From assembly GCA_963789945.1 (NCBI GenBank), contig CAWBMN010000018.1:105156-169155 (forward strand): DNA of 64,000 bases. The letters are read 5' to 3'. The stretch is from an uncultured beta proteobacterium. Lineage in GTDB: Bacteria; Pseudomonadota; Gammaproteobacteria; Burkholderiales; JACQAP01. Made by a program: the position numbers and the translations under genes. Of the stretch, positions 16,915-64,000 are shown in pieces. The notes under the pieces are model-generated. The model did not search any database and was not told the origin of the DNA. It saw nothing but the letters and a program-made list of their open reading frames with translations. Numbering within the stretch: position 1 is the first letter of the stretch; each line of letters opens with the position of its first letter.

Positions 16915-17502
16915 CTACGACTGTTGCAGCAGCAAGGCGATGTCGTGGGCAAAAACCTCCGGCCCCTGCCCGTAGCTCACGTACACGCGCAGCCGACCCT
17001 GCGGGTCGAAAACGTAAGTACCAGCGGAATGGTCCATGGTGTAGCTGTCCGGGCGCGCGCCGGCGACTTTCTGGTAGATGATCTTGAATTCCTTCGCCAC
17101 CCGCGCGGTCTCCTCCGCAGTGCCGCGCAACCCCAGGAAGCGCGGGTCGAATGCGGTCACATACTGCGACAGGATTTGCGGCGTATCGCGTTCCGGGTCC
17201 ACGGTCACCAGCAGCACCTGCACTCTGTCCCCGTCGGGGCCCAGCTTTTTGACCGCCACCGCCAGTTCCGCGAGCGTCGTGGGACACACGTCCGGGCAAT
17301 GCGTGAAACCGAAGAACATCACCACCACTTTGCCGCGAAAGTCGGCCAGCGTCCGCGGCCTGCCGGTATGGTCCGCAAGTGCGAAGTCCCGCCCGAACTC
17401 GGCTCCGGTTATGTCGGTCGCGCGAAAACCAGGCTTGCCTTGCTGGCAGGCGCCAAGTGCGAGCAGGAGAACGAGCAGGCACAGGCGCAGCACGGCTTTC
17501 AT
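16915..17502 (-). CDS. SCO1/SenC copper chaperone (lipoprotein)
   Basis: Lipobox LALGAC, CPDVCP (CxxxC) motif and the downstream His region of the SCO family. Confidence 0.9.
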   Translation of the reverse strand: MKAVLRLCLLVLLLALGACQQGKPGFRATDITGAEFGRDFALADHTGRPRTLADFRGKVVVMFFGFTHCPDVCPTTLAELAVAVKKLGPDGDRVQVLLVTVDPERDTPQILSQYVTAFDPRFLGLRGTAEETARVAKEFKIIYQKVAGARPDSYTMDHSAGTYVFDPQGRLRVYVSYGQGPEVFAHDIALLLQQS

Positions 17503-17515
17503 GACGGGCTCCCGC

Positions 17516-18424
17516 TCAGATGCGGAAGTAGTGATCCACCAGCAGCGCGGCGAACAGCAGCGACAGGTACACGATTGAGTAGCGAAAGGTCTTCTTCGCC
17601 AGTTCGTCGCTGTAGTGCATGCAGATGCGGATTGCGTAGATCAGAAAAACCGCACCCAGCGACACGGCGCTGGCAAGGTAGATTAGCCCGCTCATGCGGC
17701 TGGCGAACGGCAGCGCCGTTACCGCCACCAGGATCACGGTGTAGAACAGCACGTGCAGGCGGGTGAAGCGATCGCCGTGCGTGACCGGAAGCATCGGCAC
17801 GCCGGCCTGGGCGTACTCGTTCTTGCGGTACAGCGCCAGGGCCCAGAAATGCGGCGGGGTCCATGCGAAAATGATCAGGAACAGCAGCAACGCGTCGGAG
17901 GCGACTTCCCCGGTCACCGCCGCCCAGCCAAGCACGGGGGGCATCGCCCCGGAGGCACCACCGATCACGATGTTCTGCGGCGTGAGCGGCTTGAGCAGCA
18001 CGGTGTAGACGACCGCATAGCCGACAAAAGTGGCCAGCGTCAGCCACATGGTGAGCGGATTGACCAGCAGGTACAGGATGGTCAGTCCGAAACCGCCTAC
18101 CATGCCGGCAAATAAAAGTGTTTCCAGCGAAGTGATGGTGCCCATCGGCAGGGGACGGGCGCGGGTACGCGCCATCCTGGCGTCGATCTTCTGTTCCACC
18201 AGGCAATTGACCGCCGCGGCTGAACCCGCCACCAGTGCAATCCCCAAGGTCGCAAACACTGCTGCGAACCAGAACACGGGCGATACCAGACGCTCGGCCG
18301 GTACCGCCAGGAACATTCCGATCACTGCGGTGAAGACAATCAGCGATACCACGCGCGGCTTGGTGAGTTGCAGCAACTGCTGCATCCGCGACGGCTGCGT
18401 CCGGGAGGGAATGGAGACCGACAT
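17516..18424 (-). CDS. ctaB: Protohaem IX farnesyltransferase (haem O synthase)
   Basis: UbiA-family polytopic protein with LTKPRVV and NxxxDxxxD-type regions, within the cox cluster. Confidence 0.93.
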
Positions 18425-18427
18425 TTG

Positions 18428-19534
18428 CTAACGAAAACTGGACGGCGAGTGGAGCGCGAAGTTTAGCATTACCAGCACCGCCAGCAACAGCGCGGCCACG
18501 CCGTTGTGCGCCACCGCCACGGGCAGCGGCAGACTCGCCAGGACATTGGCGATGCCCAGCGTCACTTGCAGCAACAGCAGCGCCAGTACCGCGATACCGA
18601 ACCGGCGCAGGCCTCTCAGCCGCATCGCGGAATGTGCAAGGACCGCGAGATACGCAAAAGTTACCAGCGCGCCGACGCGATGCGTCCAGTGGATTGCATT
18701 GAGCGCCTGGTTCGACAACGCTTCGCCTTCTGCAGTCATCCCCAGCTCGCGGAAAAAATGAAATCCGTGCCCAAAGTCCATCGCCGGCGCCCACTCGCCA
18801 TGGCAGGTCGGGAAGTCCACGCAGGCCAGCGCCGCATGATTGGTGCTGACCCAGCCGCCGAGCGCGATCTGCACGCCAAGGATGATCAGGCCAAGAATCC
18901 CCCAGCGCCGGAGTGCGTGCAACGTCGAGGGTTGTCCGCCGCCGATGCCGATATGCCGCGCGGTCAGCCAGGCCAGCAGCGCCACCAGGGCCATGCCGCC
19001 CAGCAGATGCAGCGTCACGATCGCCGGCTTGAGCAATAAGGTCACCGTCCACTTGCCAAATAGTCCCTGCAAGACTACCAGCCCCACCAGCGCCAGCGGC
19101 AATCCGACCTGCGCGGCCGGGTCATCGGCCCCGGGGTCGCGGCGCCGGCGGCGCAGCGTTTGCCAGACAATAGCCACGATCATCACGCCGACGAACGAAG
19201 CGAAGTAGCGGTGCAGCATCTCATTCCAGGCCTTGGGCAGCGACACCGGACCCGAAGGTGCGACCGCCTCGGCAGCGCGGATTTCTGCCGCCGCGTGCGT
19301 CGGCGACAGCTTGCCGTAGCAGCCCGGCCAGTCCGGGCAGCCCAGCCCGGCGTCGGTCAGCCGCACATAGGCGCCGAGCATGACCAGCCCGAGGGTCATC
19401 ACCGTGGTGGCGATCACCAGCGTACGCAGCGGCAGGTAACGTGCGAACACGACGAGCGCCGCCAGCAGCGACCCGCCCCACGCGGCCGCGTGCAGTGCAT
19501 CCAGGGAGAATTGCCAGACGGCCGCATCCTGCAT
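18428..19534 (-). CDS. ctaA: Haem A synthase (COX15/CtaA)
   Basis: Eight-TM protein with GLGCPDWPGCYG and conserved His pairs. Confidence 0.88.
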   Translation of the reverse strand: MQDAAVWQFSLDALHAAAWGGSLLAALVVFARYLPLRTLVIATTVMTLGLVMLGAYVRLTDAGLGCPDWPGCYGKLSPTHAAAEIRAAEAVAPSGPVSLPKAWNEMLHRYFASFVGVMIVAIVWQTLRRRRRDPGADDPAAQVGLPLALVGLVVLQGLFGKWTVTLLLKPAIVTLHLLGGMALVALLAWLTARHIGIGGGQPSTLHALRRWGILGLIILGVQIALGGWVSTNHAALACVDFPTCHGEWAPAMDFGHGFHFFRELGMTAEGEALSNQALNAIHWTHRVGALVTFAYLAVLAHSAMRLRGLRRFGIAVLALLLLQVTLGIANVLASLPLPVAVAHNGVAALLLAVLVMLNFALHSPSSFR

Positions 19535-19547
19535 TCTTTGCCCTTTT

Positions 19548-20141
19548 TCAGTCGTCCTTCTGCAGCCAGCCGCTGGAAACCTTCACCAGCCTGGTGACGT
19601 CTTGCTTCATCTGTTGCGGATCGGCGTCGCGCGGAAAACGCATCATCAGATTGCCGAACGGATCGACAAGGTAAATGTGGTCGCGCGCCGAACGCGGCGC
19701 CGGCAAGAGCCGCAGGATCTGGTGCGCGTCGCCGATGAACTGGCGCGTGCCCTGGTACTCCGATTCGATCCCCGGCGCCGGTCGCACGCCATCGGGAATC
19801 AGCCACAGGCGTTCGATGCGATCGCGATTTCTGCCCTGAGTGAGCCGGATCTGGCGCATCAGGTACAACTTGGATCGACAGTATTCGTCGCAGACACCGG
19901 CATCGACCATGAGGAACACCCAATTGCCCCGCAGTTCATCGAAGCGGAAGACCTTGCCGTCGCGGTCCGCGACCGCGACACCGGCCAGCGGCGTGACCTC
20001 CAGCAACTCGCCGTAGTTGGTAAACGTCTGCGGCTTCCAGAGGTAATACAGCAGGAAGGAAGCAACGAACGGCGCCAGGCTAATCGTGCCCAGGAGCAGC
20101 AGGGTCCTGCGGGTCTTTTTCGGATCGGGAGCGTCTGACAT
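19548..20141 (-). CDS. Membrane-anchored thioredoxin-fold protein with CxxxC (SCO-like), conserved in cox clusters
   Basis: Start re-picked at MSDAPDPKKTRRTLLLLGTISLAPFVASF (TM anchor). Has a VCDEYC motif. Overlaps the SURF1 3' end by 62 nt. Confidence 0.6.
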   Translation of the reverse strand: MSDAPDPKKTRRTLLLLGTISLAPFVASFLLYYLWKPQTFTNYGELLEVTPLAGVAVADRDGKVFRFDELRGNWVFLMVDAGVCDEYCRSKLYLMRQIRLTQGRNRDRIERLWLIPDGVRPAPGIESEYQGTRQFIGDAHQILRLLPAPRSARDHIYLVDPFGNLMMRFPRDADPQQMKQDVTRLVKVSSGWLQKDD

Positions 20142-20838
20142 GAAAAAAAATGTGGAGAAATGCAACCAACGCGCACAGCGAAAACCATTGCACCGCGTAT
20201 CCATAATGCCTGGCGATGCCAAAATCGGGACGGGGCCAGGAGCGCACCAGGCCGTCGCCCAGGTCATTGTGCTGCTCGATCACCACCGGCTGGATGTCGA
20301 GTTGCATGCGCCGGCGATAGCGCTCGATGGTCAGGTTCTGCCACACCGGTCCGGTAGGCGGTGCCCCGGACAATTCCAGGAATCGCCCCGGCCGCATCGC
20401 GACACCGGCGACCGTCACGCTGCCGTCGGGCGTCTTCACGTCAGGCAGCCGATTTCGATCCGCCCCCGCCGCAACCCAGCCGCGGTTGACCAGGACGTAC
20501 TTCTGCGAACCCGCAACTTTCAACGGCATGACCACGTGGTAGCCGGCTACGCCTGCCAGTACTTTATTGTCGAGCAGCACTGCCGCCTGCGGCACGAACT
20601 CACCCGTGGCTTCGACGCGGCGGAACAGGAGTGGCTCTGCATCCACCGGCGCGGCTGAAAGGGCCACCGGAGCATCGGCAGAACCGCGTTCGTAGGCCTG
20701 CTGCAATCCCTCTTTCTCATGCGCCCGGTCAAGCTGCCAGTTCCCTGCAGCCGCGGTCAGCGCAATGCCGGCAATTGCCACCACCGTTGGCAGCCAGCGC
20801 GGCCGGCGCCACCTCACGGAGTGACTCGGCACGTTCAC
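20080..20838 (-). CDS. SURF1 family cytochrome oxidase assembly protein
   Basis: Two terminal TM helices, GNWQLDR and YAVQWF motifs. Confidence 0.85.
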   Translation of the reverse strand: MNVPSHSVRWRRPRWLPTVVAIAGIALTAAAGNWQLDRAHEKEGLQQAYERGSADAPVALSAAPVDAEPLLFRRVEATGEFVPQAAVLLDNKVLAGVAGYHVVMPLKVAGSQKYVLVNRGWVAAGADRNRLPDVKTPDGSVTVAGVAMRPGRFLELSGAPPTGPVWQNLTIERYRRRMQLDIQPVVIEQHNDLGDGLVRSWPRPDFGIARHYGYAVQWFSLCALVAFLHIFFHVRRSRSEKDPQDPAAPGHD

Positions 20839-20913
20839 CCGATCCGCCGCGAAAGTGGATGCGGCAAGGCGTACCGGCTACACTGGGCGCCACTTGCTTC
20901 GGCCTCCGCGAAC

Positions 20914-21111
20914 ATGAAACTCGTCGTCATCGCCTTTCTCGTCGTCATCGTTGCCAGTCTCGCCTCGGCGCTGATCTACCTGATCCGCGACAAGGGACAA
21001 TCGGACCGTACGGTGAAGGCGCTAACCGTCCGCGTTGCGCTTTCCGTCACCCTGTTCCTGCTGCTCATGGCCGGATACTACTTCGGCATCATTCCGCAGC
21101 ACGGGTTCTAA
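20914..21111 (+). CDS. Twin-TM small protein (DUF2909-like)
   Basis: 65 aa, MKLVVIAFLVVIVASLASALIYLIRDK...LFLLLMAGYYFGIIP, in its usual position within betaproteobacterial cox clusters. The track ORF starts falsely at 20719. Confidence 0.65.
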   Translation: MKLVVIAFLVVIVASLASALIYLIRDKGQSDRTVKALTVRVALSVTLFLLLMAGYYFGIIPQHGF

Positions 21112-21141
21112 AAAAAACAGCCGCACAGTTTTGTGTGCGGC
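21110..21141 (-). terminator. Rho-independent terminator downstream of ctaE (hairpin shared with the convergent + gene)
   Basis: GCCGCACA-N6-TGTGCGGC stem, followed on the minus strand by an 8-U run (the A-run at 21110-21117). Confidence 0.6.
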
Positions 21142-21215
21142 CCCAGTCGCCCGCTTATCCTGCGGGTCTCCTCCTCCTTCTGTTTTTCTTCTTGCTTTTC
21201 CTTGCCGCGGTTTCT

Positions 21216-22070
21216 CTACAGCCAGTAGACCAATATAAACAGCAGCAGCCAGACCACGTCGACGAAGTGCCAGTACCACGACACACCTTCGAAAGCGAAA
21301 TGATGATCGGCGCTGAAATGCCCCTTGATGGAACGGGCCAGAATAACCATCAGCATGATGGTGCCGATGGTGACGTGGAAGCCGTGGAATCCGGTCAGCA
21401 TGAAGAAAGTCGCGCCGTATGCCCCCATGTTCAGCGTCAGGTTCAGTTCCTGGTAGGCATGTACATACTCGTAGGCCTGCAGGCCCAGGAACAGCAAACC
21501 GAGAGCGACGGTGGCGACCAGGCCCCAGATCAATTGCGCGCGGTTGTTCTTCTTCAGACCCCAGTGCGCCCAGGTCACGGTCACGCCGGAACTCAGCAGG
21601 ATCATCGTGTTGATCGCCGGGATGCCCCAGGCACCCATCGGCGTGAAAGTTTCTTCGATCCCCGGACCGGATATCGGCCAGTTCTGCGCCGAGAAACCCG
21701 GCCATAACTGCTCCAGCGTATCGCCGCTCCCCAGCCAGGGCACCGACAGCACCCTCATGTAGAACAGCGCGCCGAAGAACGCGGCGAAGAACATGACTTC
21801 GGAGAAGATGAACCAACTCATGCCCCAGCGAAAGGAAACATCCACCTGCTTGTTGAAACTGCCGCCCTCGCTCTCGCGGATCACGGTGCCGAACCATCCG
21901 AACATCATGTAGACCAGTATCGCCATGCCGGCCAGCACCACCCATTGCCCGGGGCCGACTCCGTTCATCCAGAGGACTGCACCGATCGCCATCAGAAACA
22001 GCGCAGTCGACCCGACGACGGGCCAGTGCGACGGCTGAGGCAGGTAATAACGTGTGGATTGGCTAAGCAT
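21216..22070 (-). CDS. ctaE: Cytochrome c oxidase subunit III
   Basis: Seven-TM Cox3 sequence (FHGFHVTIG, HFVDVVWL). Confidence 0.95.
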   Translation of the reverse strand: MLSQSTRYYLPQPSHWPVVGSTALFLMAIGAVLWMNGVGPGQWVVLAGMAILVYMMFGWFGTVIRESEGGSFNKQVDVSFRWGMSWFIFSEVMFFAAFFGALFYMRVLSVPWLGSGDTLEQLWPGFSAQNWPISGPGIEETFTPMGAWGIPAINTMILLSSGVTVTWAHWGLKKNNRAQLIWGLVATVALGLLFLGLQAYEYVHAYQELNLTLNMGAYGATFFMLTGFHGFHVTIGTIMLMVILARSIKGHFSADHHFAFEGVSWYWHFVDVVWLLLFILVYWL

Positions 22071-22121
22071 TCCTGATTCTCCCTAAGTATTTTGCCCCTG
22101 GTTCACTTGCACTTGTCCGAC

Positions 22122-22334
22122 TCAGCCGACAATGAATCTCACCAGCAATATCAGCGTGGTGACAAATATTGCCGCCCCGATGACGCCGGCGACGATCACC
22201 TGCACCGGCGTGATACTGGCCAGATCCGCCTGGTTGTCCGCCTGCCTGCGCACGCCGAAAAAAGACCAGAACACGGTCCTGAATACGCGCAGGAACGGTG
22301 CCTTTGCCGGTTTACCCGGCTGTTGGTTCACCAC
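22122..22334 (-). CDS. DUF2970-like small membrane protein
   Basis: The C-terminal 70 aa of track ORF 22122..22562 (VVNQQPGKPAKAPFLRVFRTVFWSFFG...VIGAAIFVTTLILLVRFIVG). GTG start overlapping the ctaG stop region. Typical ctaG-ctaE spacer gene. Confidence 0.55.
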   Translation of the reverse strand: MVNQQPGKPAKAPFLRVFRTVFWSFFGVRRQADNQADLASITPVQVIVAGVIGAAIFVTTLILLVRFIVG

Positions 22335-22881
22335 CGCGTGGCCTCGCTGCGGTCGGTGCCGCGCCTTCCACCTTGAAGAAGGTGTAGGAAAGCGTAACCG
22401 TATCCACATTCCGCGGCAGGCCCTGTTCGATGACGAACACCACCGGCATCTGCCGCACTTCTCCCGCTGCGAAACTCTGCGTGGAAAAGCAAAAACAATC
22501 AAGCTTGCGAAAATATTTCGCCGCGACCTGCGGCCCGTAACTCGGGATCGCCTGGCCGGCAACCGCCTGGTCCGAGCGGTTGCGCACTTCGTACATCACC
22601 TGCACCAGTTGCCCGGGATGCACCTTGATGCTGGTCTGCAGCGGCCTGAACTGCCACGGCAGGTCGCTGCGGATGTTGGCATCGAACTCAAGCGTCACCA
22701 GCCGGCTCTCGTCGACCTGCGTATTGGCCGGCGGCGCGCTGGCTTTCTCGACGTCATAAATGCCGGTGACCTCGCAGATCAACTTGTACAACGGCACCAG
22801 CCCATAACCGAACCCGAACATGCCGACCGCAACGATCAGCAGTTTGACCAGGATCGAACGATTCTCAGAAGCCCGGCTCAT
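22312..22881 (-). CDS. ctaG: Cytochrome c oxidase assembly protein CtaG/Cox11
   Basis: N-terminal TM, then the Cox11 domain including the CFCF copper motif (KLDCFCFSTQ). Confidence 0.92.
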   Translation of the reverse strand: MSRASENRSILVKLLIVAVGMFGFGYGLVPLYKLICEVTGIYDVEKASAPPANTQVDESRLVTLEFDANIRSDLPWQFRPLQTSIKVHPGQLVQVMYEVRNRSDQAVAGQAIPSYGPQVAAKYFRKLDCFCFSTQSFAAGEVRQMPVVFVIEQGLPRNVDTVTLSYTFFKVEGAAPTAARPRGGEPTAG

Positions 22882-22991
22882 TTCCAGTGACGCAGGATCA
22901 CGACGACAAAAAAAGCGAGTGCAACCGACAACAGGATCAGCGCGGTTCTGACGTTCCTCGCCTGAATTTGCTTCGCCTGCTGATCATTCAT
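22878..22991 (-). CDS. 37-aa single-TM protein (cytochrome oxidase small assembly protein-like)
   Basis: Below the track length cut-off. Hand translation gives MNDQQAKQIQARNVRTALILLSVALAFFVVVILRHWK. Its TGA overlaps the ctaG ATG (ATGA). Confidence 0.55.
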   Translation of the reverse strand: MNDQQAKQIQARNVRTALILLSVALAFFVVVILRHWK

Positions 22992-23031
22992 GAGTGCAAC
23001 AGCGTGCCGGCTTGCGCCGTCATGCCCGAAG

Positions 23032-24621
23032 TTACCTTACCGTGGGCGGCGTCTCGAAGGTGTGATACGGCACCGGCGTAGGCAGGTGCGTCCATTCCAG
23101 CGAGTCCGCGCCCTCCCAGGGCTTCTGTGGTGCTTTCTCGCCGCTGCGGATGCACTTCAGCACCACGTACAGGAACAGTAATTGCGACAGGCCGAAACCG
23201 AAAGCGCCGATCGACGAGATCATGTTGAAATCCGCGAACTGCGGGGCGTAATCGGGAATGCGGCGCGGCATTCCCGCCAGCCCGAGGAAGTGCTGCACGA
23301 AGAAGATCAGGTTGAAGAAGATCATCGACAACCAGAAGTGCCACTTGCCCAGCGTCTCGTCGTACATGTGGCCGGTCCATTTCGGCAGCCAGAAATAGAT
23401 GCCGGCAAAGGCGGAGAACAGCGCGCCTGCCACCATCACGTAGTGGAAGTGCGCGACCACGTAATAGGTGTCATGCAACTGGATGTCCACCGGCACGATC
23501 GCCAGCACCAGGCCGCTGAAGCCGCCCAGGGTAAACAGGAACAGGAATCCGATGGCGAACAACATCGGGGTCTCGAACGTGAGCGAGCCCTTCCACATGG
23601 TCGCCACCCAGTTGAACACCTTAACGCCGGTGGGCACCGCGATGAGCATGGTTGCGTACATGTAATAGAGCTGCGCGGTGGTCGGCAGCCCGGCCGTATA
23701 CATGTGGTGCGCCCATACCAGGAAGGACAGGATCGCGATCGAAGCGGTCGCGTACACCATCGAGGTATAGCCGAACAGCGGCTTGCGCGAGAATGCGGGA
23801 ATCACCTGCGATACCACGCCGAAGGCCGGGATGGCGATGATGTAAACCTCGGGATGGCCGAAGAACCAGAAAATGTGCTGGAACAGCACCGGGTCGCCAC
23901 CACCGGCAGCATTGAAGAAATGGGTGCCGAAATGGCGGTCGGTCAGGGTCATGGTCACCGCGCCCGCCAGCACCGGCATTACCGCGACCAGCAGATAGGC
24001 CGTTATCAGCCAGGTCCACACGAACAGCGGCATCTTCATCAACGTCATCCCGGGTGCGCGCAGGTTCAGGATGGTGGTGATGATGTTGATCGAGCCCATG
24101 ATCGAGGACATGCCGAGAAGGTGGACCGCGAAAATCGTCAGGTCCATCCCCATGCCCTGCTGGACGGTGAGCGGTGCATACATTGTCCAGCCCACGCCCG
24201 GCGCGCCGCCGGGAACGGCCAGCGAGAGCAGGAGCAGCAGCGCCGCCGGCGGCAGCAGCCAGAAGCTCCAGTTGTTCATGCGCGGGAAGGCCATGTCGGG
24301 AGCGCCGATCTGCATCGGGATCAGCCAATTGGCGAAACCCACGAACGCCGGCATGATCGCGCCGAAAACCATGATGAGCCCGTGCAGCGTGGTCATCTGG
24401 TTGAACACCTCGGGATCCACCACCTGCATGCCGGGCATGAACAGCTCGGCGCGAATCACCATCGCCATGAATCCGCCGGTCAGGAACATGATGAAACTGA
24501 ACCACAGGTACATCGTGCCGATGTCCTTGTGATTGGTGGTCTTGACCCAGCGCATGAGGCCGCCGGGATAATGGTCGTGGCCGTGTGCGTGGTCGTGTTC
24601 GTGGCCGATGACTGCGCTCAT
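23032..24621 (-). CDS. ctaD: Cytochrome c oxidase subunit I
   Basis: 529 aa, NHKDIGTMY, WFFGHPEVY, HHMY motifs. Confidence 0.97.
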   Translation of the reverse strand: MSAVIGHEHDHAHGHDHYPGGLMRWVKTTNHKDIGTMYLWFSFIMFLTGGFMAMVIRAELFMPGMQVVDPEVFNQMTTLHGLIMVFGAIMPAFVGFANWLIPMQIGAPDMAFPRMNNWSFWLLPPAALLLLLSLAVPGGAPGVGWTMYAPLTVQQGMGMDLTIFAVHLLGMSSIMGSINIITTILNLRAPGMTLMKMPLFVWTWLITAYLLVAVMPVLAGAVTMTLTDRHFGTHFFNAAGGGDPVLFQHIFWFFGHPEVYIIAIPAFGVVSQVIPAFSRKPLFGYTSMVYATASIAILSFLVWAHHMYTAGLPTTAQLYYMYATMLIAVPTGVKVFNWVATMWKGSLTFETPMLFAIGFLFLFTLGGFSGLVLAIVPVDIQLHDTYYVVAHFHYVMVAGALFSAFAGIYFWLPKWTGHMYDETLGKWHFWLSMIFFNLIFFVQHFLGLAGMPRRIPDYAPQFADFNMISSIGAFGFGLSQLLFLYVVLKCIRSGEKAPQKPWEGADSLEWTHLPTPVPYHTFETPPTVR

Positions 24622-24679
24622 GGTTGCTTCTCCTCGATAACCTTGCGTATGTTTCTGGGTGAGAATCGGGTGCCGGCGC

Positions 24680-25546
24680 CTACCTGGCGGTCTGTCCGGC
24701 GGCGCCGGCCGCGGCGACCGTTGTCGCGCCTCCCGCAGCCGATGCGGTCTTTTGTCTGGCAGCCCAGTCGGCGAACTCGTTCTGTTCCAGCGCCACTACC
24801 ACGATCGGCATGAAACCGTGTTGCTTGCCGCACAGCTCCGCGCACTGGCCGCGGTAAGTCCCGGCCTTGTCGACCCTGAACCAGGCATCGCGGATGAAGC
24901 CCGGAACGGCGTCCTGCTTGACTCCGAATGCGGGCACCCACCACGAATGCAGCACGTCGTTGGCGGTGATCAGGACGCGCACCTTTTTGCCCACTGGCAC
25001 GACCAGGGGTTTGTCCACTTCGAGCAGGTAGTGCTCGCCCTTGGGCTCCGATCCGTAGATTTGCGCACGCGGGGTGGACAACGTGCTGTAGAACTGCACG
25101 CCGTCGGCCACGCCGGACAAGTCGCCTTCACCCTTGAGGTATTCGTATCCCCATTTCCACTGGTAGCCGGTAACCTTGATGGTCATGTCGGGCGAGGAGC
25201 TGTCCTTCATCGCCAACAGCGATTGCGTCGCGGGAAAGGCCATGCCGATCAGGATGAAGAAAGGCACGACGGTCCACATGATTTCGACGGAAGTGTTCTC
25301 GTGGAAGTGCGCAGCCTGGTGTCCGACCGATTTGCGGTGCTTGATCACCGAGTAGAACATCATGCCGAACACGCCGACGAAAATGACCAGGCAGATGACC
25401 AGAACGATGGTGTGGAGGTCGTACATCTGGCGGGCAATTTCGGTTGCCGGTTCCTGCAGGTTGTATTTGGCCTGCGCCCACGCCAAGCCGGACAGTGGCA
25501 TCAGCGCCGCGACCGCGCCGACCATTTGCAACAACGTCTTGATCAT
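24680..25546 (-). CDS. ctaC: Cytochrome c oxidase subunit II
   Basis: Two TM helices plus a cupredoxin domain with the CuA motif HSWWVP...CAELCGKQHGFM. No fused cytochrome c domain. Confidence 0.95.
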   Translation of the reverse strand: MIKTLLQMVGAVAALMPLSGLAWAQAKYNLQEPATEIARQMYDLHTIVLVICLVIFVGVFGMMFYSVIKHRKSVGHQAAHFHENTSVEIMWTVVPFFILIGMAFPATQSLLAMKDSSSPDMTIKVTGYQWKWGYEYLKGEGDLSGVADGVQFYSTLSTPRAQIYGSEPKGEHYLLEVDKPLVVPVGKKVRVLITANDVLHSWWVPAFGVKQDAVPGFIRDAWFRVDKAGTYRGQCAELCGKQHGFMPIVVVALEQNEFADWAARQKTASAAGGATTVAAAGAAGQTAR

Positions 25547-58580: not shown

Positions 58581-59519
<939 letters not shown>

Positions 59520-59525
59520 TCAGAG

Positions 59526-59554
59526 AAAAAACAAAGGCGGCCGCAGCCGCCTTT
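59526..59554 (-). terminator. Rho-independent terminator of hsp20
   Basis: On the minus strand: AAAGGCGGC-UGCG-GCCGCCUUU, then G and a 6-U run. Confidence 0.7.
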
Positions 59555-59572
59555 GCCCGGGAAACACGACCA

Positions 59573-59998
59573 TTACTGGATCGCGAGTTTTTTCGAAGTT
59601 ACTGCCGCCTTCTTCGGCAGCCTCAGTTCCAGCACGCCCTCGTTGTACTTTGCCTGCGCGGAGGCTTCGTCCACGTCCTGGGCCAGGCTGAAGGCGCGAT
59701 ACACCTTGCCGTAATAGCGCTCGGAACGCAGGACTTTCTCGCCCTGCCTGTCCTCGCGCTCGCGCTTTACCTCCGCGCTGATCGCGACCTGGTTGCCGTT
59801 GATGGTGACGTTGATGTCTTCCTTCTTCACGCCCGGGATTTCGGCCTGGACGACATAGGCACCATCGTCTTCCTTAACGTCGATACGGAATTGCACCTGC
59901 GACTGGTTCTCGAAAGTCATCGGGCGAACGAAAAAACCCTTGAAGAGATCGTCGAAGGTCTCGTCAAGCGGGTAGCTGTAACGGGCCAAACTTGTCAT
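59573..59998 (-). CDS. Hsp20/alpha-crystallin small heat-shock protein
   Basis: Start at MTSLARYSYPLDE after AAGGAGA. Alpha-crystallin domain (AEIPGVKKEDINV...GVLELRLPK). The track start 60115 is an extension. Confidence 0.92.
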   Translation of the reverse strand: MTSLARYSYPLDETFDDLFKGFFVRPMTFENQSQVQFRIDVKEDDGAYVVQAEIPGVKKEDINVTINGNQVAISAEVKREREDRQGEKVLRSERYYGKVYRAFSLAQDVDEASAQAKYNEGVLELRLPKKAAVTSKKLAIQ

Positions 59999-60049
59999 GT
60001 CAGTCTCCTTGTGCGGATAAATTGGGTCGGGCGTCCGGCGCCCTAGCCC

Positions 60050-60080
60050 GCTATATGTGCGCGGGCGGTGTCTTTTCAAG
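60050..60080 (-). promoter_or_regulatory. Candidate sigma-32 heat-shock promoter of hsp20
   Basis: On the minus strand: GGCCTTGAAAA, a 14-nt spacer, then GCACATATA. Compare the sigma-32 consensus CCCTTGAA-N13-17-CCCCATNT. It ends about 50 nt upstream of the ATG. Confidence 0.45.
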
Positions 60081-60469
60081 GCCCTGCGGGAGACGCGAAA
60101 ACCCTGTCCGGGCACCTGTGAAAATCGCGGGTGGTAGCAATCTGAACCCCGTATCCTGTTGTTTTCATAACGTTTCCAAGGAGCCTCACCGGATTCCTTT
60201 CAGCGCGAGTGCAGAGGTAACTTGAGGTGCCCCCCGGCACCGATTCTTTCTATTCCGCTGGAGCAATCCACCACGTACACGCGCACCTGCCTGTGCCGCA
60301 GGCAGTTGCTCTGCCCGGGACGCGCACGCCTGCATCCATGCGCCTTGGCGCAACGTAACTGTCAACGCGATACGCGCGGCGGCACCGGTCCGCGTTTCCC
60401 AAGCAGGGCCAGCTAACGATTGCAGGGTCCTGCAGCCGGGCAAGTCGATAACTAACCAGGGAGAAACAA

Positions 60470-60730
60470 ATGGTAGACGGCAAAAGGAGGCTCGCCGGCC
60501 TCGCGATTGCGGCGACCGCGGCAGCATTATTCATGACAGGTTGTGCCGCAACCGGAGGCTCCTCCAGTGGCAGCAGTGCCAAAGTCCATTGCGACGGGGG
60601 CAATTCCTGCAAAGGCATGAGCGAGTGCAAGACGGCAAACAGCTCCTGCAAGGGCCAAAACGCCTGCAAGGGACAAGGCTTTGTGATGCTTACACCGGCG
60701 GAATGCAAAACGGCGGGCGGAAGGGCGTAA
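60470..60730 (+). CDS. Exported Cys-rich RiPP precursor, bufferin-like (six-Cys BufA2-type), lipobox-bearing
   Basis: 86 aa: [25 protein letters not shown] / [11 protein letters not shown] / [60 protein letters not shown]. Sits directly upstream of the DUF692 and DUF2063 genes. Confidence 0.75.
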
Positions 60731-60752
60731 ACTTCGCCAGACTCGGCACTGC

Positions 60753-60786
60753 GGGGCATCCATTGGTGTGGGTGCCCCGTTTTTTA
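60753..60786 (+). terminator. Intrinsic terminator/attenuator between the precursor and the MNIO gene
   Basis: CGGGGCA-N14-TGCCCCG stem followed by TTTTTT, located 22 nt after the precursor stop and 18 nt before the next ATG. Confidence 0.55.
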
Positions 60787-60803
60787 CGCGACCTTCATCA
60801 TCC

Positions 60804-61643
60804 ATGACCGCACAAACTGCGCTCGGCTTCGGATTGGGCCTGCGCTCCGATCACTACGAGGACATCCTCGCGTCCCGGCCCAACGTGGACTGGTTCGAGG
60901 CGCTGACCGAAAACTACCTGGTGCCGGGCGGCAAGCCGCTGCATTACCTGGATCGCGTCCGCGCCGAATTTCCCATGGTCCTGCACGGGGTGTCGTTGTC
61001 GATCGGAAGCCACGATCCCCTGGACCGCGAATATCTCAAGGCGCTCAAGCAACTGGCGCAACGCGTCGAACCGGCTTGGGTATCGGATCATCTGTGCTGG
61101 ACCGGCGTTGCCGGCCGGAACCTGCACGATCTGTTCCCCCTGCCCTACACCGAGGAAGCGACCGGGCACGTCGCTGCAAAGGTGCGCGAGGTCCAGGATT
61201 TCCTGGGACGGCAGATCCTACTCGAGAACGTGTCCACATACGTGACCTTTCGCCAGTCGGAGATGAGCGAGTGGGAGTTTCTTGCGGAGATCTGCGCGCG
61301 CGCCGATTGCCTGATCCTGCTCGACATTAACAACATCTACGTGAGCGCCTACAACCACGGTTTCGATGCCCAGGATTTTCTGAACGGCGTGCCCGCTGCG
61401 CGGGTGCGGCAGTTCCATCTTGCCGGCCACAGCAATTGCGGCACCCATATCATCGACACCCACGATGCGCCGATCATCGACCCGGTATGGGAGCTTTACC
61501 AGGATGCGCTGCGCCGCTTCGGGCAGGTCGCCACCATGATCGAGCGCGACGACCAGATTCCGCCGCTGGCGGAGCTGGTCACGGAACTCGACCAGGCACG
61601 CCGGATCGCGGCGCAGACGCTGGCGGCGAGGGTCGCGGCATGA
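60804..61643 (+). CDS. DUF692/MNIO family multinuclear non-haem iron oxidase (BufB/MbnB-like)
   Basis: [57 protein letters not shown]: the DUF692 TIM-barrel signature. Start re-picked at MTAQTALGF. Confidence 0.9.
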
Positions 61644-62422
61644 GCGCGCTCACCGGCACCCAGGCACGCTTCCAGGCCTACGTGCTCGCGGGCGATGGAG
61701 CGATTGTCTCTGACATCGCCGGTGCCGACGACGCGTTCCGCCGCACCCGGCTCGACATCTATTACAACGCCTACCGGCTGCGGCTGGCGGAAGCGCTTGC
61801 CACCGACTACGAAATCCTCAAGACCTACACCGGCGACGAGATCTTTGACGCCATCGTCCGCGAATACATCGATGCGCACCCCTCCGTATTCCGCAACGTG
61901 CGCTGGTTCGGCGGGCACCTTGCCGGTTTCCTGCGTGACGAGCCGCGCTATGCGGGGCAGCCGATACTGGCCGACCTGGCGCGGTTCGAGTGGACGTTGG
62001 GACTGGCTTTCGATGCCGCAGACACCGCGGCGCTCCGGTTCGAGGACGTTGCCGCGGTGCCGGCCGAAGCCTGGACCGACCTGCGTCTCACCGTGCATCC
62101 CGCGGTTCATGTTATCGAACTGCAGACCAATGCCGTCGCCATGTGGAACGAGCTCAAGAACGCAGATCGCGGGATCGCGCCGGAAAGCCTGCCCGAGCCG
62201 TCGCGGTGGGCCATATGGCGCAAGCAGCTCTCGCCTTATTTCCGCTCGCTCGAAGCCGACGAAGCCTGGGCGCTGGACGCCATGCGCAATCACCTCGGTT
62301 TCGGCGAGATTTGCGCCGGGCTGTGCCAGTGGCTGCCCGAAGATCAAGCCGCGCCGCGTGCGGCGACGCTGTTGCGAGGCTGGGTGGACGAAGGCTGGAT
62401 CGCATCTCTGGAAACCACCTAG
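61640..62422 (+). CDS. DUF2063 family partner protein (BufC-like)
   Basis: The start overlaps the MNIO stop (ATGA). [19 protein letters not shown] and LARFEW regions are typical of the DUF2063 proteins that pair with DUF692. Confidence 0.85.
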
Positions 62423-62530
62423 CGATTCGCTGCAAGACTCCGTGGACGCGCCGCTCCGGGCCCGGGTTCGGTCTGCATTATAAAATTGCAATTACTAATC
62501 TCATCAGTTCGCCCGGGAGGTGATGTGGCC

Positions 62531-64000
62531 ATGTCCAGACTATTCGTCTCTGTAATCTTGATTCTGGCGGCCCTGGTATGCAGGCCGGCGTTCGGCATGA
62601 CCTCGGCCATGGTCGCGTCATGCCCCGCCGGAATGGACCAGAAGGTCGAAACGCTCAGCGGAATGTTCACTGTGCACGTGATCTGCGACCACGTGCTGTT
62701 CGAGATTCCGAAACCCATGCTGAACCGGGACATGCTGGTGAATACCGAGTTCGCCGCACTCTCGACCGGGAGCGACTTCGTCGCACCGGGCTCGGTGGTG
62801 GACAACCGGGTGGTGCGTTGGGTCCGGCGCGGCAACAAGATGCACCTCGAGGACGTGCGTTACGAGATCTGGGCGCCGAACATGCCCAACCTGCAGCGCG
62901 GCGTTGAATCAGCGTCACTGCGGACGGTGATCCGGGCATTCGACATCATCACCGAGGGCCCGGATGGTGCCCCGGTCATCGACATCACGGGCCTTTTTGC
63001 GACCGAGGTACCGGAAGGTTTTGCTCTGGAATTCATGCAGCACTTCAGCATGGATCAAGTGGACCCGAAACGTTCTTTCATCGAAACCGTCAAGGCGTTT
63101 CCGCACAACATTGAAATCCGCTTCTACCAGACCTGGGTTCCGGATCGCGACCGGTTGCGCAAGTCGGCGGAGCAAGGCGAGGAGCGCATTGCGCCGGGAC
63201 TGGGTTTCATCTTTCACACCAGCATTCTGCTTCTGCCCGAGGTGCCGATGCGGGGACGCTACTGGGACGAGCGGGTCGGTTATTTCGCGACCTGGTTCGA
63301 CGACTACGGCACTGCCGAGCACGGCAGGGTGCAGCGCGCTTTCATCCAGCGTTACCGTCTCGACAAGAAGAATCCGCGGGCCGAAGTGTCCGAACCGGTC
63401 AAGCCCATCACGTTCTTCATCAGCCGCGAAGTGCCAGACAAATGGCGTCCATTCATCAAGCGCGGGATCGAGGACTGGCAACAGGTGTTCGAAAAGGCGG
63501 GTTTCCGCGATGCCATCATCGCCCGCGATGCGCCGTCGGAACAACAGGACCCGAATTGGGATCCGGAGGACGTGCGCTACAACGTGATCCGCTGGACGCC
63601 CAGCGGCCGCCAGAATGCAATGGGACCTGCGGTGGTCGACCCGCGCAGCGGCGAGGTGATCTCTTCCCATGCCATTTTCTGGCACGACGTGCTGCGTTTG
63701 GCCGAGAACTGGTACTTCACCCAGGTCTCGCCGCTGAATACGAGTGCACAGAAGCTGCCTCTGCCGGATGACGTCATTGGGGACATGCTGCGCTACATCG
63801 TCGCGCACGAAATCGGCCACGCGCTGGGGCTGCGCCACAATTTCAAGGGACATTCGGCGTATTCGGTGGCGCAATTGCGCAGCCGCGAGTGGACCGAAAA
63901 ATGGGGCACTTCCGCTTCCATCATGGACTATGCGCGATTGAATTATGTCGCCCAGCCCGGCGACGGAGCCTATCTGCTACCCAAGTTCGGCCCCTATGAC
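62531..64000 (+). CDS. Secreted zinc-dependent metalloprotease (reprolysin-like HExxHxxGxxH), C-terminus cut by window edge
   Basis: Absent from the track because it runs off the right edge. Hand translation gives MSRLFVSVILILAALVCRPAFG (signal peptide) ... VAHEIGHALGLRHNF zinc motif ... SIMDY. The - strand ORF 62915..63874 is antisense noise. Confidence 0.8.
   Translation, partial: MSRLFVSVILILAALVCRPAFGMTSAMVASCPAGMDQKVETLSGMFTVHVICDHVLFEIPKPMLNRDMLVNTEFAALSTGSDFVAPGSVVDNRVVRWVRRGNKMHLEDVRYEIWAPNMPNLQRGVESASLRTVIRAFDIITEGPDGAPVIDITGLFATEVPEGFALEFMQHFSMDQVDPKRSFIETVKAFPHNIEIRFYQTWVPDRDRLRKSAEQGEERIAPGLGFIFHTSILLLPEVPMRGRYWDERVGYFATWFDDYGTAEHGRVQRAFIQRYRLDKKNPRAEVSEPVKPITFFISREVPDKWRPFIKRGIEDWQQVFEKAGFRDAIIARDAPSEQQDPNWDPEDVRYNVIRWTPSGRQNAMGPAVVDPRSGEVISSHAIFWHDVLRLAENWYFTQVSPLNTSAQKLPLPDDVIGDMLRYIVAHEIGHALGLRHNFKGHSAYSVAQLRSREWTEKWGTSASIMDYARLNYVAQPGDGAYLLPKFGPYD

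Follow-up and report, generated by a model that had tools for sequence, protein, structure and literature searches.

The stretch of DNA analysed here (the window, 64,000 nucleotides) comes from a contig of an uncultured beta proteobacterium (GenBank assembly GCA_963789945.1, contig CAWBMN010000018.1). Close to its end, at 60470-62422, lie three open reading frames (ORFs) of 86, 279 and 260 amino acids, all on the plus strand, which an initial annotation made from the letters alone had described as a bufferin-type cluster for a ribosomally synthesised and post-translationally modified peptide (RiPP). The three co-directional ORFs were found where that annotation had placed them, at 60470..60730 (bufA2, the precursor gene), 60804..61643 (bufB, encoding an MNIO enzyme) and 61640..62422 (bufC, encoding the DUF2063-type partner). 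We consider it probable, at roughly 80%, that they form a functional bufferin operon of the Buf2 type, bufA2-bufB-bufC, that is, a 'captophorin' of the Cys-Lys group, in a Burkholderiales-like betaproteobacterium from soil. The cluster is intact and is an ordinary three-gene Buf2-type bufferin, with a precursor of the lipoprotein type. The GC content of the region is 62.6%, the family matches all fall into plus-strand frames, and the minus-strand ORFs here are antisense frames of the ordinary kind.

Gene families and gene order

The product of bufA2 matches the NCBIfam model NF050166 (Cu_RiPP_BufA2) with 87.2 bits at a cut-off of 60 (E=6e-25), covering model positions 2-77 of 79. A Pfam scan gave no match at E<=0.1, and because of this the protein is not taken for a member of DUF2282/BufA1. 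Homologues of the precursor are numerous (478 were found), and the one encoded on the contig of a relative with an 85%-identical BufC carries the NCBI name 'BufA2 family ... metallophore'.

The bufB gene encodes an MNIO (DUF692) maturase of the 'Cys-Lys' type. Its product scores 379 bits (E=1e-113) against PF05114 (MbnB_TglH_ChrH) and 392.4 bits (E=9e-118) at a cut-off of 310 against NF050167 (MNIO_BufB, 'MNIO family bufferin maturase'), and it stays under the cut-offs of the models for HvfB (277.4 against 360), MbnB (72.9 against 325), ChrH (43 against 600) and ApyH. All six motifs that the initial annotation had quoted as the MNIO signature were recovered in the protein. The closest solved structures are the DUF692 protein 3bww, then TglH (8hci/8hi7) and MbnB. 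The iron ligands of MbnB are His54, His90, Glu133, Asp163, Asn166, His192, Asp208, His210 and Glu239 (PMC9060507); when transferred to BufB through HMMER alignments, all nine have an equivalent (H61, H96, E141, D174, N177, H205, D218, H220 and E247), and these positions are invariant across 80 BufB homologues except for one Tyr at the position of H61. The last ligand opens the motif E247-R248-D249-D250, in which D249 is present in all 80 homologues and D250 in 72 of them. The residue that follows the catalytic Asp of MNIO enzymes (Asp249/Phe250 in FonB) is Asp in Cys-Lys enzymes and contacts the substrate Lys in models (PMC13097082); by this comparison, D249 is the predicted catalytic base and D250 the predicted Cys-Lys determinant. 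A GTG at 60768 was considered as the start of bufB and rejected: it lies inside the hairpin described below, and the homologues align from residue 1 of the form that starts at ATG 60804.

The product of bufC combines an N-terminal helical DUF2063 domain with a C-terminal domain resembling a RiPP recognition element (RRE). The match to PF09836 (DUF2063) reaches 67.6 bits at a cut-off of 27.2 (E=1e-18), is confined to amino acids 7-98 and bears out the DUF2063-type partner proposed before. A sequence search of BufC against the PDB gave no match. With an AlphaFold2 model of BufC (60 homologues; predicted local distance difference test, pLDDT, 91.9; predicted template modelling score, pTM, 0.87), the fold search returned NGO1945 (3dee) and TglI (8hi7_A/8hci_A) at the top, and the next matches of the C-terminal half were RRE domains of lasso-peptide systems. 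BufC is a 'PME-type 1' DUF2063-RRE partner of about 260 residues as described in PMC12452194, and NCBI names its 85%-identical relative 'HvfC/BufC family peptide modification chaperone'.

With the BufA2 and MNIO_BufB equivalog cut-offs and the DUF2063 cut-off all exceeded, the earlier assignment to a bufferin-type MNIO RiPP cluster stands. The profile searches with hidden Markov models (HMMs) that had been proposed as a check on it returned significant matches of 60804..61643 to DUF692/MNIO and of 61640..62422 to DUF2063, and the proposed ATGA coupling is likewise present, the bufB stop and the bufC start overlapping at 61640-61643.

A scan of one genome per species for relatives of the MNIO yielded more than 596 loci, 80 of which were kept for comparison (single loci are cited below by L numbers). 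The closest MNIO relatives, with 77-81% identity, belong to soil Betaproteobacteria and to metagenome-assembled genomes of Burkholderiales. A BufA2 homologue is located immediately upstream of the MNIO in about 71 of the 80 loci and a BufC homologue immediately downstream in 76. No DoxX-like gene was recognised after bufC in the window or in the related loci when their ORFs were read by eye, without a Pfam scan, and no fourth gene is conserved after bufC across the related loci, where the neighbours (again read by eye, not with HMMs) are heterogeneous. The initial annotation had seen a deviation from the described layout at this locus. This view had to be given up: DoxX belongs to Buf1 clusters and not to Buf2 (PMC12452194), published Buf2 clusters have the order A-B-C without DoxX (PMC11626156; PMC12452194), and that layout is what we find in the window, as in the roughly 71 related loci. 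We observed no departure of the locus from the described Buf2 layout.

Two very close relatives, L081 (precursor 91% identical) and L083 (BufB 90% identical), show the same upstream order as the window, gpmA - M23 peptidase - CtpA - ThiF - lipoprotein - SlmA - HAD - ArgB - Hsp20, followed by bufA2BC. Since this gene order is common to them, the operon is an old resident of the lineage. The composition of the locus is without anomaly, and horizontal transfer was rejected on this ground and on the synteny conserved in relatives. The ratio of nonsynonymous to synonymous substitution rates (dN/dS) against close relatives is 0.17-0.22 for bufA2 and 0.08-0.22 over the three genes, thus purifying selection acts on bufA2, bufB and bufC. 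A second bufferin locus or paralogues were not found within the window.

Several related systems share parts of this inventory. Bufferin 1/gig clusters (DUF2282, MNIO, DUF2063 and DoxX; C. vibrioides buf1 and Cupriavidus metallidurans gig) have the same enzyme pair, a small Sec-exported copper-binding product and the same thiooxazole chemistry, which for the window is a prediction. They differ in their DUF2282 (PF10048) precursor with four core Cys and in DoxX, whereas the precursor in the window has six core Cys and no DUF2282; with no Pfam match of the precursor and no DoxX-like gene recognised by eye, an assignment to Buf1/gig was rejected. Oxazolin (HvfABC of Haemophilus influenzae), gonophorin and fontiphorin are copper-associated thiooxazole peptides that also depend on an MNIO and a DUF2063-RRE protein (PMC13097082; PMC11252979). 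However, these 'Lys-Cys' captophorins have EGKCG repeats and a Phe after the catalytic Asp, whereas in the window there is no EGKCG and the position is taken by Asp (D250). An oxazolin/HvfABC assignment was discarded on the HvfB score given above, an HvfC score of 29.8 against a cut-off of 142 and the missing EGKCG motif. Methanobactin MbnABC shares the MNIO fold, the nine iron-ligand positions and the conversion of Cys to a copper-binding heterocycle, but uses an MbnC partner, secretes a short leader-core precursor as a chalkophore and forms an oxazolone-thioamide product; this assignment was dropped because of the low MbnB score and because the partner here is a DUF2063 protein.

Signal peptide, cysteines and predicted product

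The bufA2 product contains seven Cys, at positions 25, 41, 47, 53, 60, 66 and 79. The six Cys counted in the initial annotation are those of the core; the whole ORF has one more, the lipobox residue Cys25. Likewise, the export signal noted there is present at the N-terminus and can be refined to the lipoprotein (signal peptidase II) type. The signal peptide covers amino acids 1-24 (60470..60541) and consists of a KRR n-region, an Ala/Leu-rich h-region and the lipobox M-T-G-C (60533-60544, within F-M-T-G-C25). Amino acids 1-25 satisfy the lipoprotein pattern {DERK}6-[LIVMFWSTAG]2-[LIVMFYSTAGCQ]-[AGS]-C in a regular expression search, and Cys25 falls within positions 15-35, where the Cys of a lipoprotein is expected after a charged n-region and a hydrophobic h-region. 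By this pattern match, the Sec-dependent N-terminal signal of a Buf2 precursor is present in its lipoprotein variant. The Cys25 codon (60542..60544) would mark the site of diacylglyceryl/acyl attachment and the mature N-terminus. It is followed by a Gly/Ser-rich tether of amino acids 26-37 (60545..60580), which varies in length and sequence among homologues of the lipobox clade, and by the folded core of amino acids 38-86 (60581..60727), which contains the other six Cys in a conserved spacing.

A [MIVL][TAS]GC box is found at the same place, in addition to six core Cys, in nearly all of the closest 60 or so precursor homologues. More distant homologues have an AxA signal-peptidase-I site and the six Cys only, without the lipobox Cys. 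In P0002, a metagenome contig with a 93%-identical precursor, the box reads F-M-K-G-C in place of F-M-T-G-C; the Lys at lipobox position -2 is atypical and may be due to a sequencing variant, or else the lipobox of this precursor may be impaired.

The core spacing C-x5-C-x5-C-x6-C-x5-C-x12/13-C is present in 117 of 120 precursor homologues. Cys II to V are followed by Lys in 108-117 of these 117, while the residues after Cys I and Cys VI are variable. The precursor in the window has Lys after Cys47, Cys53, Cys60 and Cys66, Ala after Cys25 and Asp after Cys41. BufA2-type precursors have been placed in the 'Cys-Lys' group (PMC13097082), and for bufferin 2 of C. vibrioides a mass loss of 18 Da was reported, with the four central Cys converted to thiooxazoles at a cost of 4 Da per residue and the first and last Cys unmodified and probably disulfide-bonded (PMC11626156). 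By analogy, Cys47, Cys53, Cys60 and Cys66 should be converted to four 5-thiooxazoles, and Cys41 and Cys79 should form a disulfide. Cys25 and Cys41 are predicted to be spared because the residues after them, Ala and Asp, break the Cys-Lys rule; Cys25 would thereby be left free for lipidation, a step that we predict from what is known of bacterial lipoproteins in general (PMC13056109). The mature product would be a lipopeptide of 62 residues, Cys25-Ala86. It should be a small, Cys-derived, copper-binding peptide, probably held in the cell envelope by its lipid anchor. The residue at +2 from the Cys25 start is Ala, and under the E. coli rule (PMC13056109) the lack of an Asp at this position suggests Lol-dependent transfer, and with it sorting of the lipopeptide to the outer membrane. 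The initial annotation had left the product chemistry open; a fairly specific prediction can be made instead when the homologous C. vibrioides Buf2 is taken as a guide and the Cys-Lys rule is applied (PMC11626156; PMC13097082).

A characterised counterpart, C. vibrioides bufferin 2 (bufA2-bufB2-bufC2, CCNA_03001-02999; PMC11626156), has the same three-gene order without DoxX, and likewise a Sec-dependent signal, a six-Cys core, BufA2 and BufB equivalogs, a DUF2063-RRE partner and central Cys-Lys pairs. In contrast to it, the signal in the window is lipoprotein-type, so that the product is predicted to be membrane-tethered and not soluble in the periplasm; in addition, no link to a SigF/NrsF regulon is visible and the host is a betaproteobacterium. 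The signal type does not set the locus apart from the family either, contrary to the deviation claimed before, since about 16% of Buf2 precursors have a lipoprotein signal (PMC12452194); lipobox-bearing bufferins were also mined in PMC13056109. These predicted lipoprotein-type Buf2 clusters consist of a lipobox BufA2, an MNIO and a DUF2063 protein, and the locus belongs to this subset without structural difference. The lipobox is thus a known variant, and the subset has so far been predicted only. The lipidated MNIO RiPPs of the DybA/ChrA type (PMC13056109) also have a lipobox Cys and enter the lipoprotein pathway after cytoplasmic modification by an MNIO. However, they belong to another MNIO clade (compare the ChrH score of BufB), carry a macrocycle and a hydantoin, and come from Bacteroidota and Neisseria hosts.

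Expression signals of the operon

The bufA2 gene is preceded by a strong ribosome-binding site, the Shine-Dalgarno (SD) sequence GGGAGA at 60459..60464, 5 nucleotides before the ATG. In the window bufB has a weak ribosome-binding site with no recognisable SD sequence. The same asymmetry is seen among related loci, in which an SD-like site lies ahead of bufA2 in 53 of 69 and ahead of bufB in 5 of 49. In 67 of 74 loci bufC starts no later than the bufB stop, with a gap of -4 in the large majority, when the most upstream in-frame ATG or GTG is called as the start.

The spacer between bufA2 and bufB contains a stem-loop of 13 pairs with a T-run (60751..60786, plus strand), detected by terminator scan and folding. 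Its GC-rich stem (60751-60780) followed by the TTTTTT tail has the sequence features of an intrinsic (rho-independent) terminator; the folding energy is -29.6 kcal/mol (z = -3.4), and none of 200 shuffled sequences was equally stable. L081 and L083 have retained this stem, and a stem of at least 8 pairs that starts 4-30 nucleotides past the bufA2 stop was found in 57 of the 70 loci with a measurable spacer; over these 70 loci the median z of spacer folding is -3.06, with z < -2 in 52. We infer that the hairpin is a candidate partial terminator (attenuator) or a 3´-end stabiliser of a short bufA2 transcript. Taken together, the SD asymmetry, the hairpin and the gene overlap suggest an arrangement that would yield much precursor, little enzyme, and BufB and BufC in equimolar amounts.

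Upstream of bufA2, an alignment of the Hsp20-bufA2 intergenic regions of the window, L081, L082 and L083 revealed a conserved block at 60355..60410 (plus strand), a candidate promoter or operator of bufA2. It reads GTAACT (60355-60360)-N16-CGGC (60377-60380), then CCGGTCCGCGTTTCCCAAGC, and is common to the window, L081 and L083; the hexamer and the 16-nucleotide spacing are fixed in the window and its three closest relatives, and the spacer sequence varies. The sigma-F site of Caulobacter is GTAACC-N16-CGAA (PMC3511200), from which the block differs at three positions. With a partial match and no enrichment (see below), a sigma-F-type promoter was rejected and is kept as a weak lead only. A plus-strand scan for a sigma-70 consensus upstream of bufA2 found none, and an Rfam scan of 59400-62700 returned two sub-threshold chance matches only. 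We make no claim for the upstream k-mer CCGGTC: 18 loci contain it where 4.2 would be expected, but two related clades account for most of the signal, and its spacing is inconsistent.

Nine Steroidobacteraceae-like loci (L004, L006, L007, L008, L016, L017, L029, L037 and L056) have a common motif upstream of bufA2, TGCAATCC-N14-CGGTCTACTGTA, and several loci of this kind contain a second box, CCGGCG(T/C)TACAATCGGCG, nearer the start codon. Both might serve as promoters or operators of bufA2 peculiar to this clade; the window has the CCGGTC core only. The gene divergent from bufA2 encodes an Hsp20 protein (59573-59998, minus strand) and is separated from it by a 471-bp intergenic region. The same pairing is found in L002, L003, L081, L082 and L083, and the regulatory region may be shared.

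Proposed mechanism and alternative readings

If the locus works as a Buf2-type operon, the following course can be proposed. The precursor would be made in excess from the strong ribosome-binding site of bufA2, with the hairpin ending or stabilising part of the transcripts, while bufB without a recognisable SD sequence and the 4-nucleotide overlap with bufC would give low and roughly equimolar amounts of enzyme and partner. By homology to C. vibrioides BufA2B2C2, BufC with its DUF2063 and RRE-like domains would bind the precursor in the cytoplasm and hand it to the multi-iron oxidase BufB, which with O2 would convert Cys47, Cys53, Cys60 and Cys66 to 5-thiooxazoles (-4 Da each). Cys25 would keep its free thiol for lipidation, and Cys41 and Cys79 would form a structural disulfide after export. 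As the lipobox suggests, Sec export would be followed by lipidation of Cys25 by Lgt, cleavage by signal peptidase II and N-acylation by Lnt; with no Asp at +2, Lol would probably carry the lipopeptide to the inner face of the outer membrane. There, judging from the characterised members of the family, the tethered peptide could chelate excess periplasmic Cu(I)/Cu(II) through thiooxazole N/S donors and buffer copper stress. C. vibrioides bufferin 2 is induced by copper and protects against it (PMC11626156).

A number of points weigh against this reading. The case for the locus is wholly computational, and lipoprotein-type bufferins as such are known from prediction only. BufC falls below the cut-off of HvfC, the only NCBIfam partner model. 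The assignment of Cys I to VI by comparison with C. vibrioides BufA2 follows from their order and the Cys-Lys pattern, and the residue numbers given for that protein in the published work (Cys24, Cys50) do not fit the spacing of the precursor in the window. The +2 sorting rule of E. coli, on which the outer-membrane placement is based, fails in some bacteria. For the hairpin, full termination, protection against RNases or no regulatory role at all are equally conceivable. Furthermore, no copper-responsive regulator was found at the locus, neither SigF/NrsF nor any other pair of extracytoplasmic function sigma factor and anti-sigma factor flanks the operon, and the sigma-F-like motif is not enriched across the family, since 6 of 74 loci have it upstream of bufA2 and 5.0 would be expected from shuffled sequences.

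Downstream of bufC, after an AT-rich spacer of 108 bp, a gene on the plus strand extends from 62531 to beyond position 64000, where it runs off the window; according to Pfam it encodes a DUF5118/DUF5117/DUF4953 met-zincin metalloprotease, with a HEIGH motif and a signal peptide. No homologue was encoded within 10 kb in any of the 80 related loci, and for this reason we place it outside the cluster; it looks like a local insertion or rearrangement. In L001, L002 and L083, the three closest loci with downstream sequence, bufC is directly followed by a convergent gene for a PCu(A)C/LpqE-like copper chaperone (PF04314; minus strand, L002 9133-9615, L083 12278-12745, L001 about 1774-2160), and then by dacC and genes for a D-amino-acid aminotransferase, DUF493, lipB and lipA. 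The PCu(A)C gene was not found in the window up to 64000 nor in the other fetched loci. These PCu(A)C neighbours fit a copper context in the clade.

One could go further and combine these elements. The product would then be a lipid-anchored bufferin of the outer membrane with four thiooxazoles, whose precursor passes both the RiPP and the lipoprotein pathway since the Cys-Lys selectivity of the MNIO spares the lipobox Cys; in this betaproteobacterial clade it may act together with the neighbouring PCu(A)C in copper trafficking and not only as a copper sponge, and how much precursor is made relative to enzyme would be governed by a conserved attenuator downstream of bufA2. We regard this combination in full as rather improbable.

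The same cluster and chemistry could also serve something other than copper detoxification, with Au, Ag, Cd, Zn or Hg as the target, or copper delivery through PCu(A)C, SCO1 and cytochrome oxidase. In favour of this, the locus shows no copper-specific regulator, bufC of the closest relatives adjoins the gene for PCu(A)C, a protein working in copper delivery, and fusions of MerC with bufferins hint at other metals (PMC12452194). However, both characterised bufferin operons of C. vibrioides respond to Cu, whereas Fe, Zn and Mn do not induce them, Buf1 picked copper from a metal mixture (PMC11626156), and other thiooxazole peptides likewise point to copper (PMC13097082). Moreover, the PCu(A)C gene has a convergent orientation where it occurs, and it is missing from the sequenced window and was seen in none of the other fetched loci. 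A different target appears unlikely. A different product is also conceivable, since BufB might form methanobactin-like oxazolone-thioamide pairs, which are isomeric with 5-thiooxazoles and give the same loss of 4 Da. The two products are hard to distinguish, and oxazolone-thioamide was the original assignment for related MNIO products (PMC11252979). The revision of the oxazolin structure to a thiooxazole (PMC13097082) speaks against it, as do nuclear magnetic resonance data for Buf1 and subsequent labelling and heteronuclear multiple bond correlation experiments, which support the 5-thiooxazole in bufferins (PMC11626156; PMC13097082). BufB itself reaches 392 bits on the BufB model and 73 on the MbnB model with its cut-off of 325, and we consider oxazolone formation here very unlikely.

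As for the met-zincin, it is co-directional with the operon, starts 108 bp after bufC, and no terminator was detected between the two, from which a variant four-gene system could be construed with the protease as a fourth member, for instance for processing. Yet homologues are absent from the 10-kb surroundings of all 80 related loci, and in the closest relatives its place is taken by PCu(A)C and dacC. Its gene also comes with a signal peptide of its own and with an AT-rich spacer ahead of it, and the lipoprotein pathway requires no dedicated protease. We therefore judge its membership extremely improbable and return to the three-gene Buf2-type operon as the preferred interpretation.

Bufferins are a very large, recently characterised family of periplasmic copper-binding RiPPs. 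The family is already named, with curated equivalog models, and close relatives are named automatically by NCBI; the locus is one more intact member and alters nothing known of the family. It is a clean lipoprotein-type Buf2 case that yields a sharp prediction as to which of the seven Cys would be oxidised, disulfide-bonded or lipidated, and it is a convenient case for the question of bufferin lipidation and of the Cys-Lys selectivity rule. A small addition is the expression design seen across about 70 loci, with a strong bufA2 site, a hairpin, a weak bufB site and the bufB-bufC overlap; neither this design nor such a hairpin is mentioned in the two main bufferin papers.

Two further observations concern the gene neighbourhood. 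A cytochrome c oxidase set with SCO1/SenC-like and haem A/O synthase-like genes, recognised from N-terminal translations only, is located at 16915-25546 on the minus strand of the window; it is copper-dependent and about 35 kb away from the bufferin operon, with no link established between them. In two distant loci, L010 (6537-7028, plus strand) and L014 (5181-5840, plus strand), the gene after bufC resembles a thiol-disulfide protein when the translations are read by eye, one being DsbB-like and the other CcdA/DsbD-like. These are single cases; such neighbours would fit the need for a bufferin disulfide formed after export.

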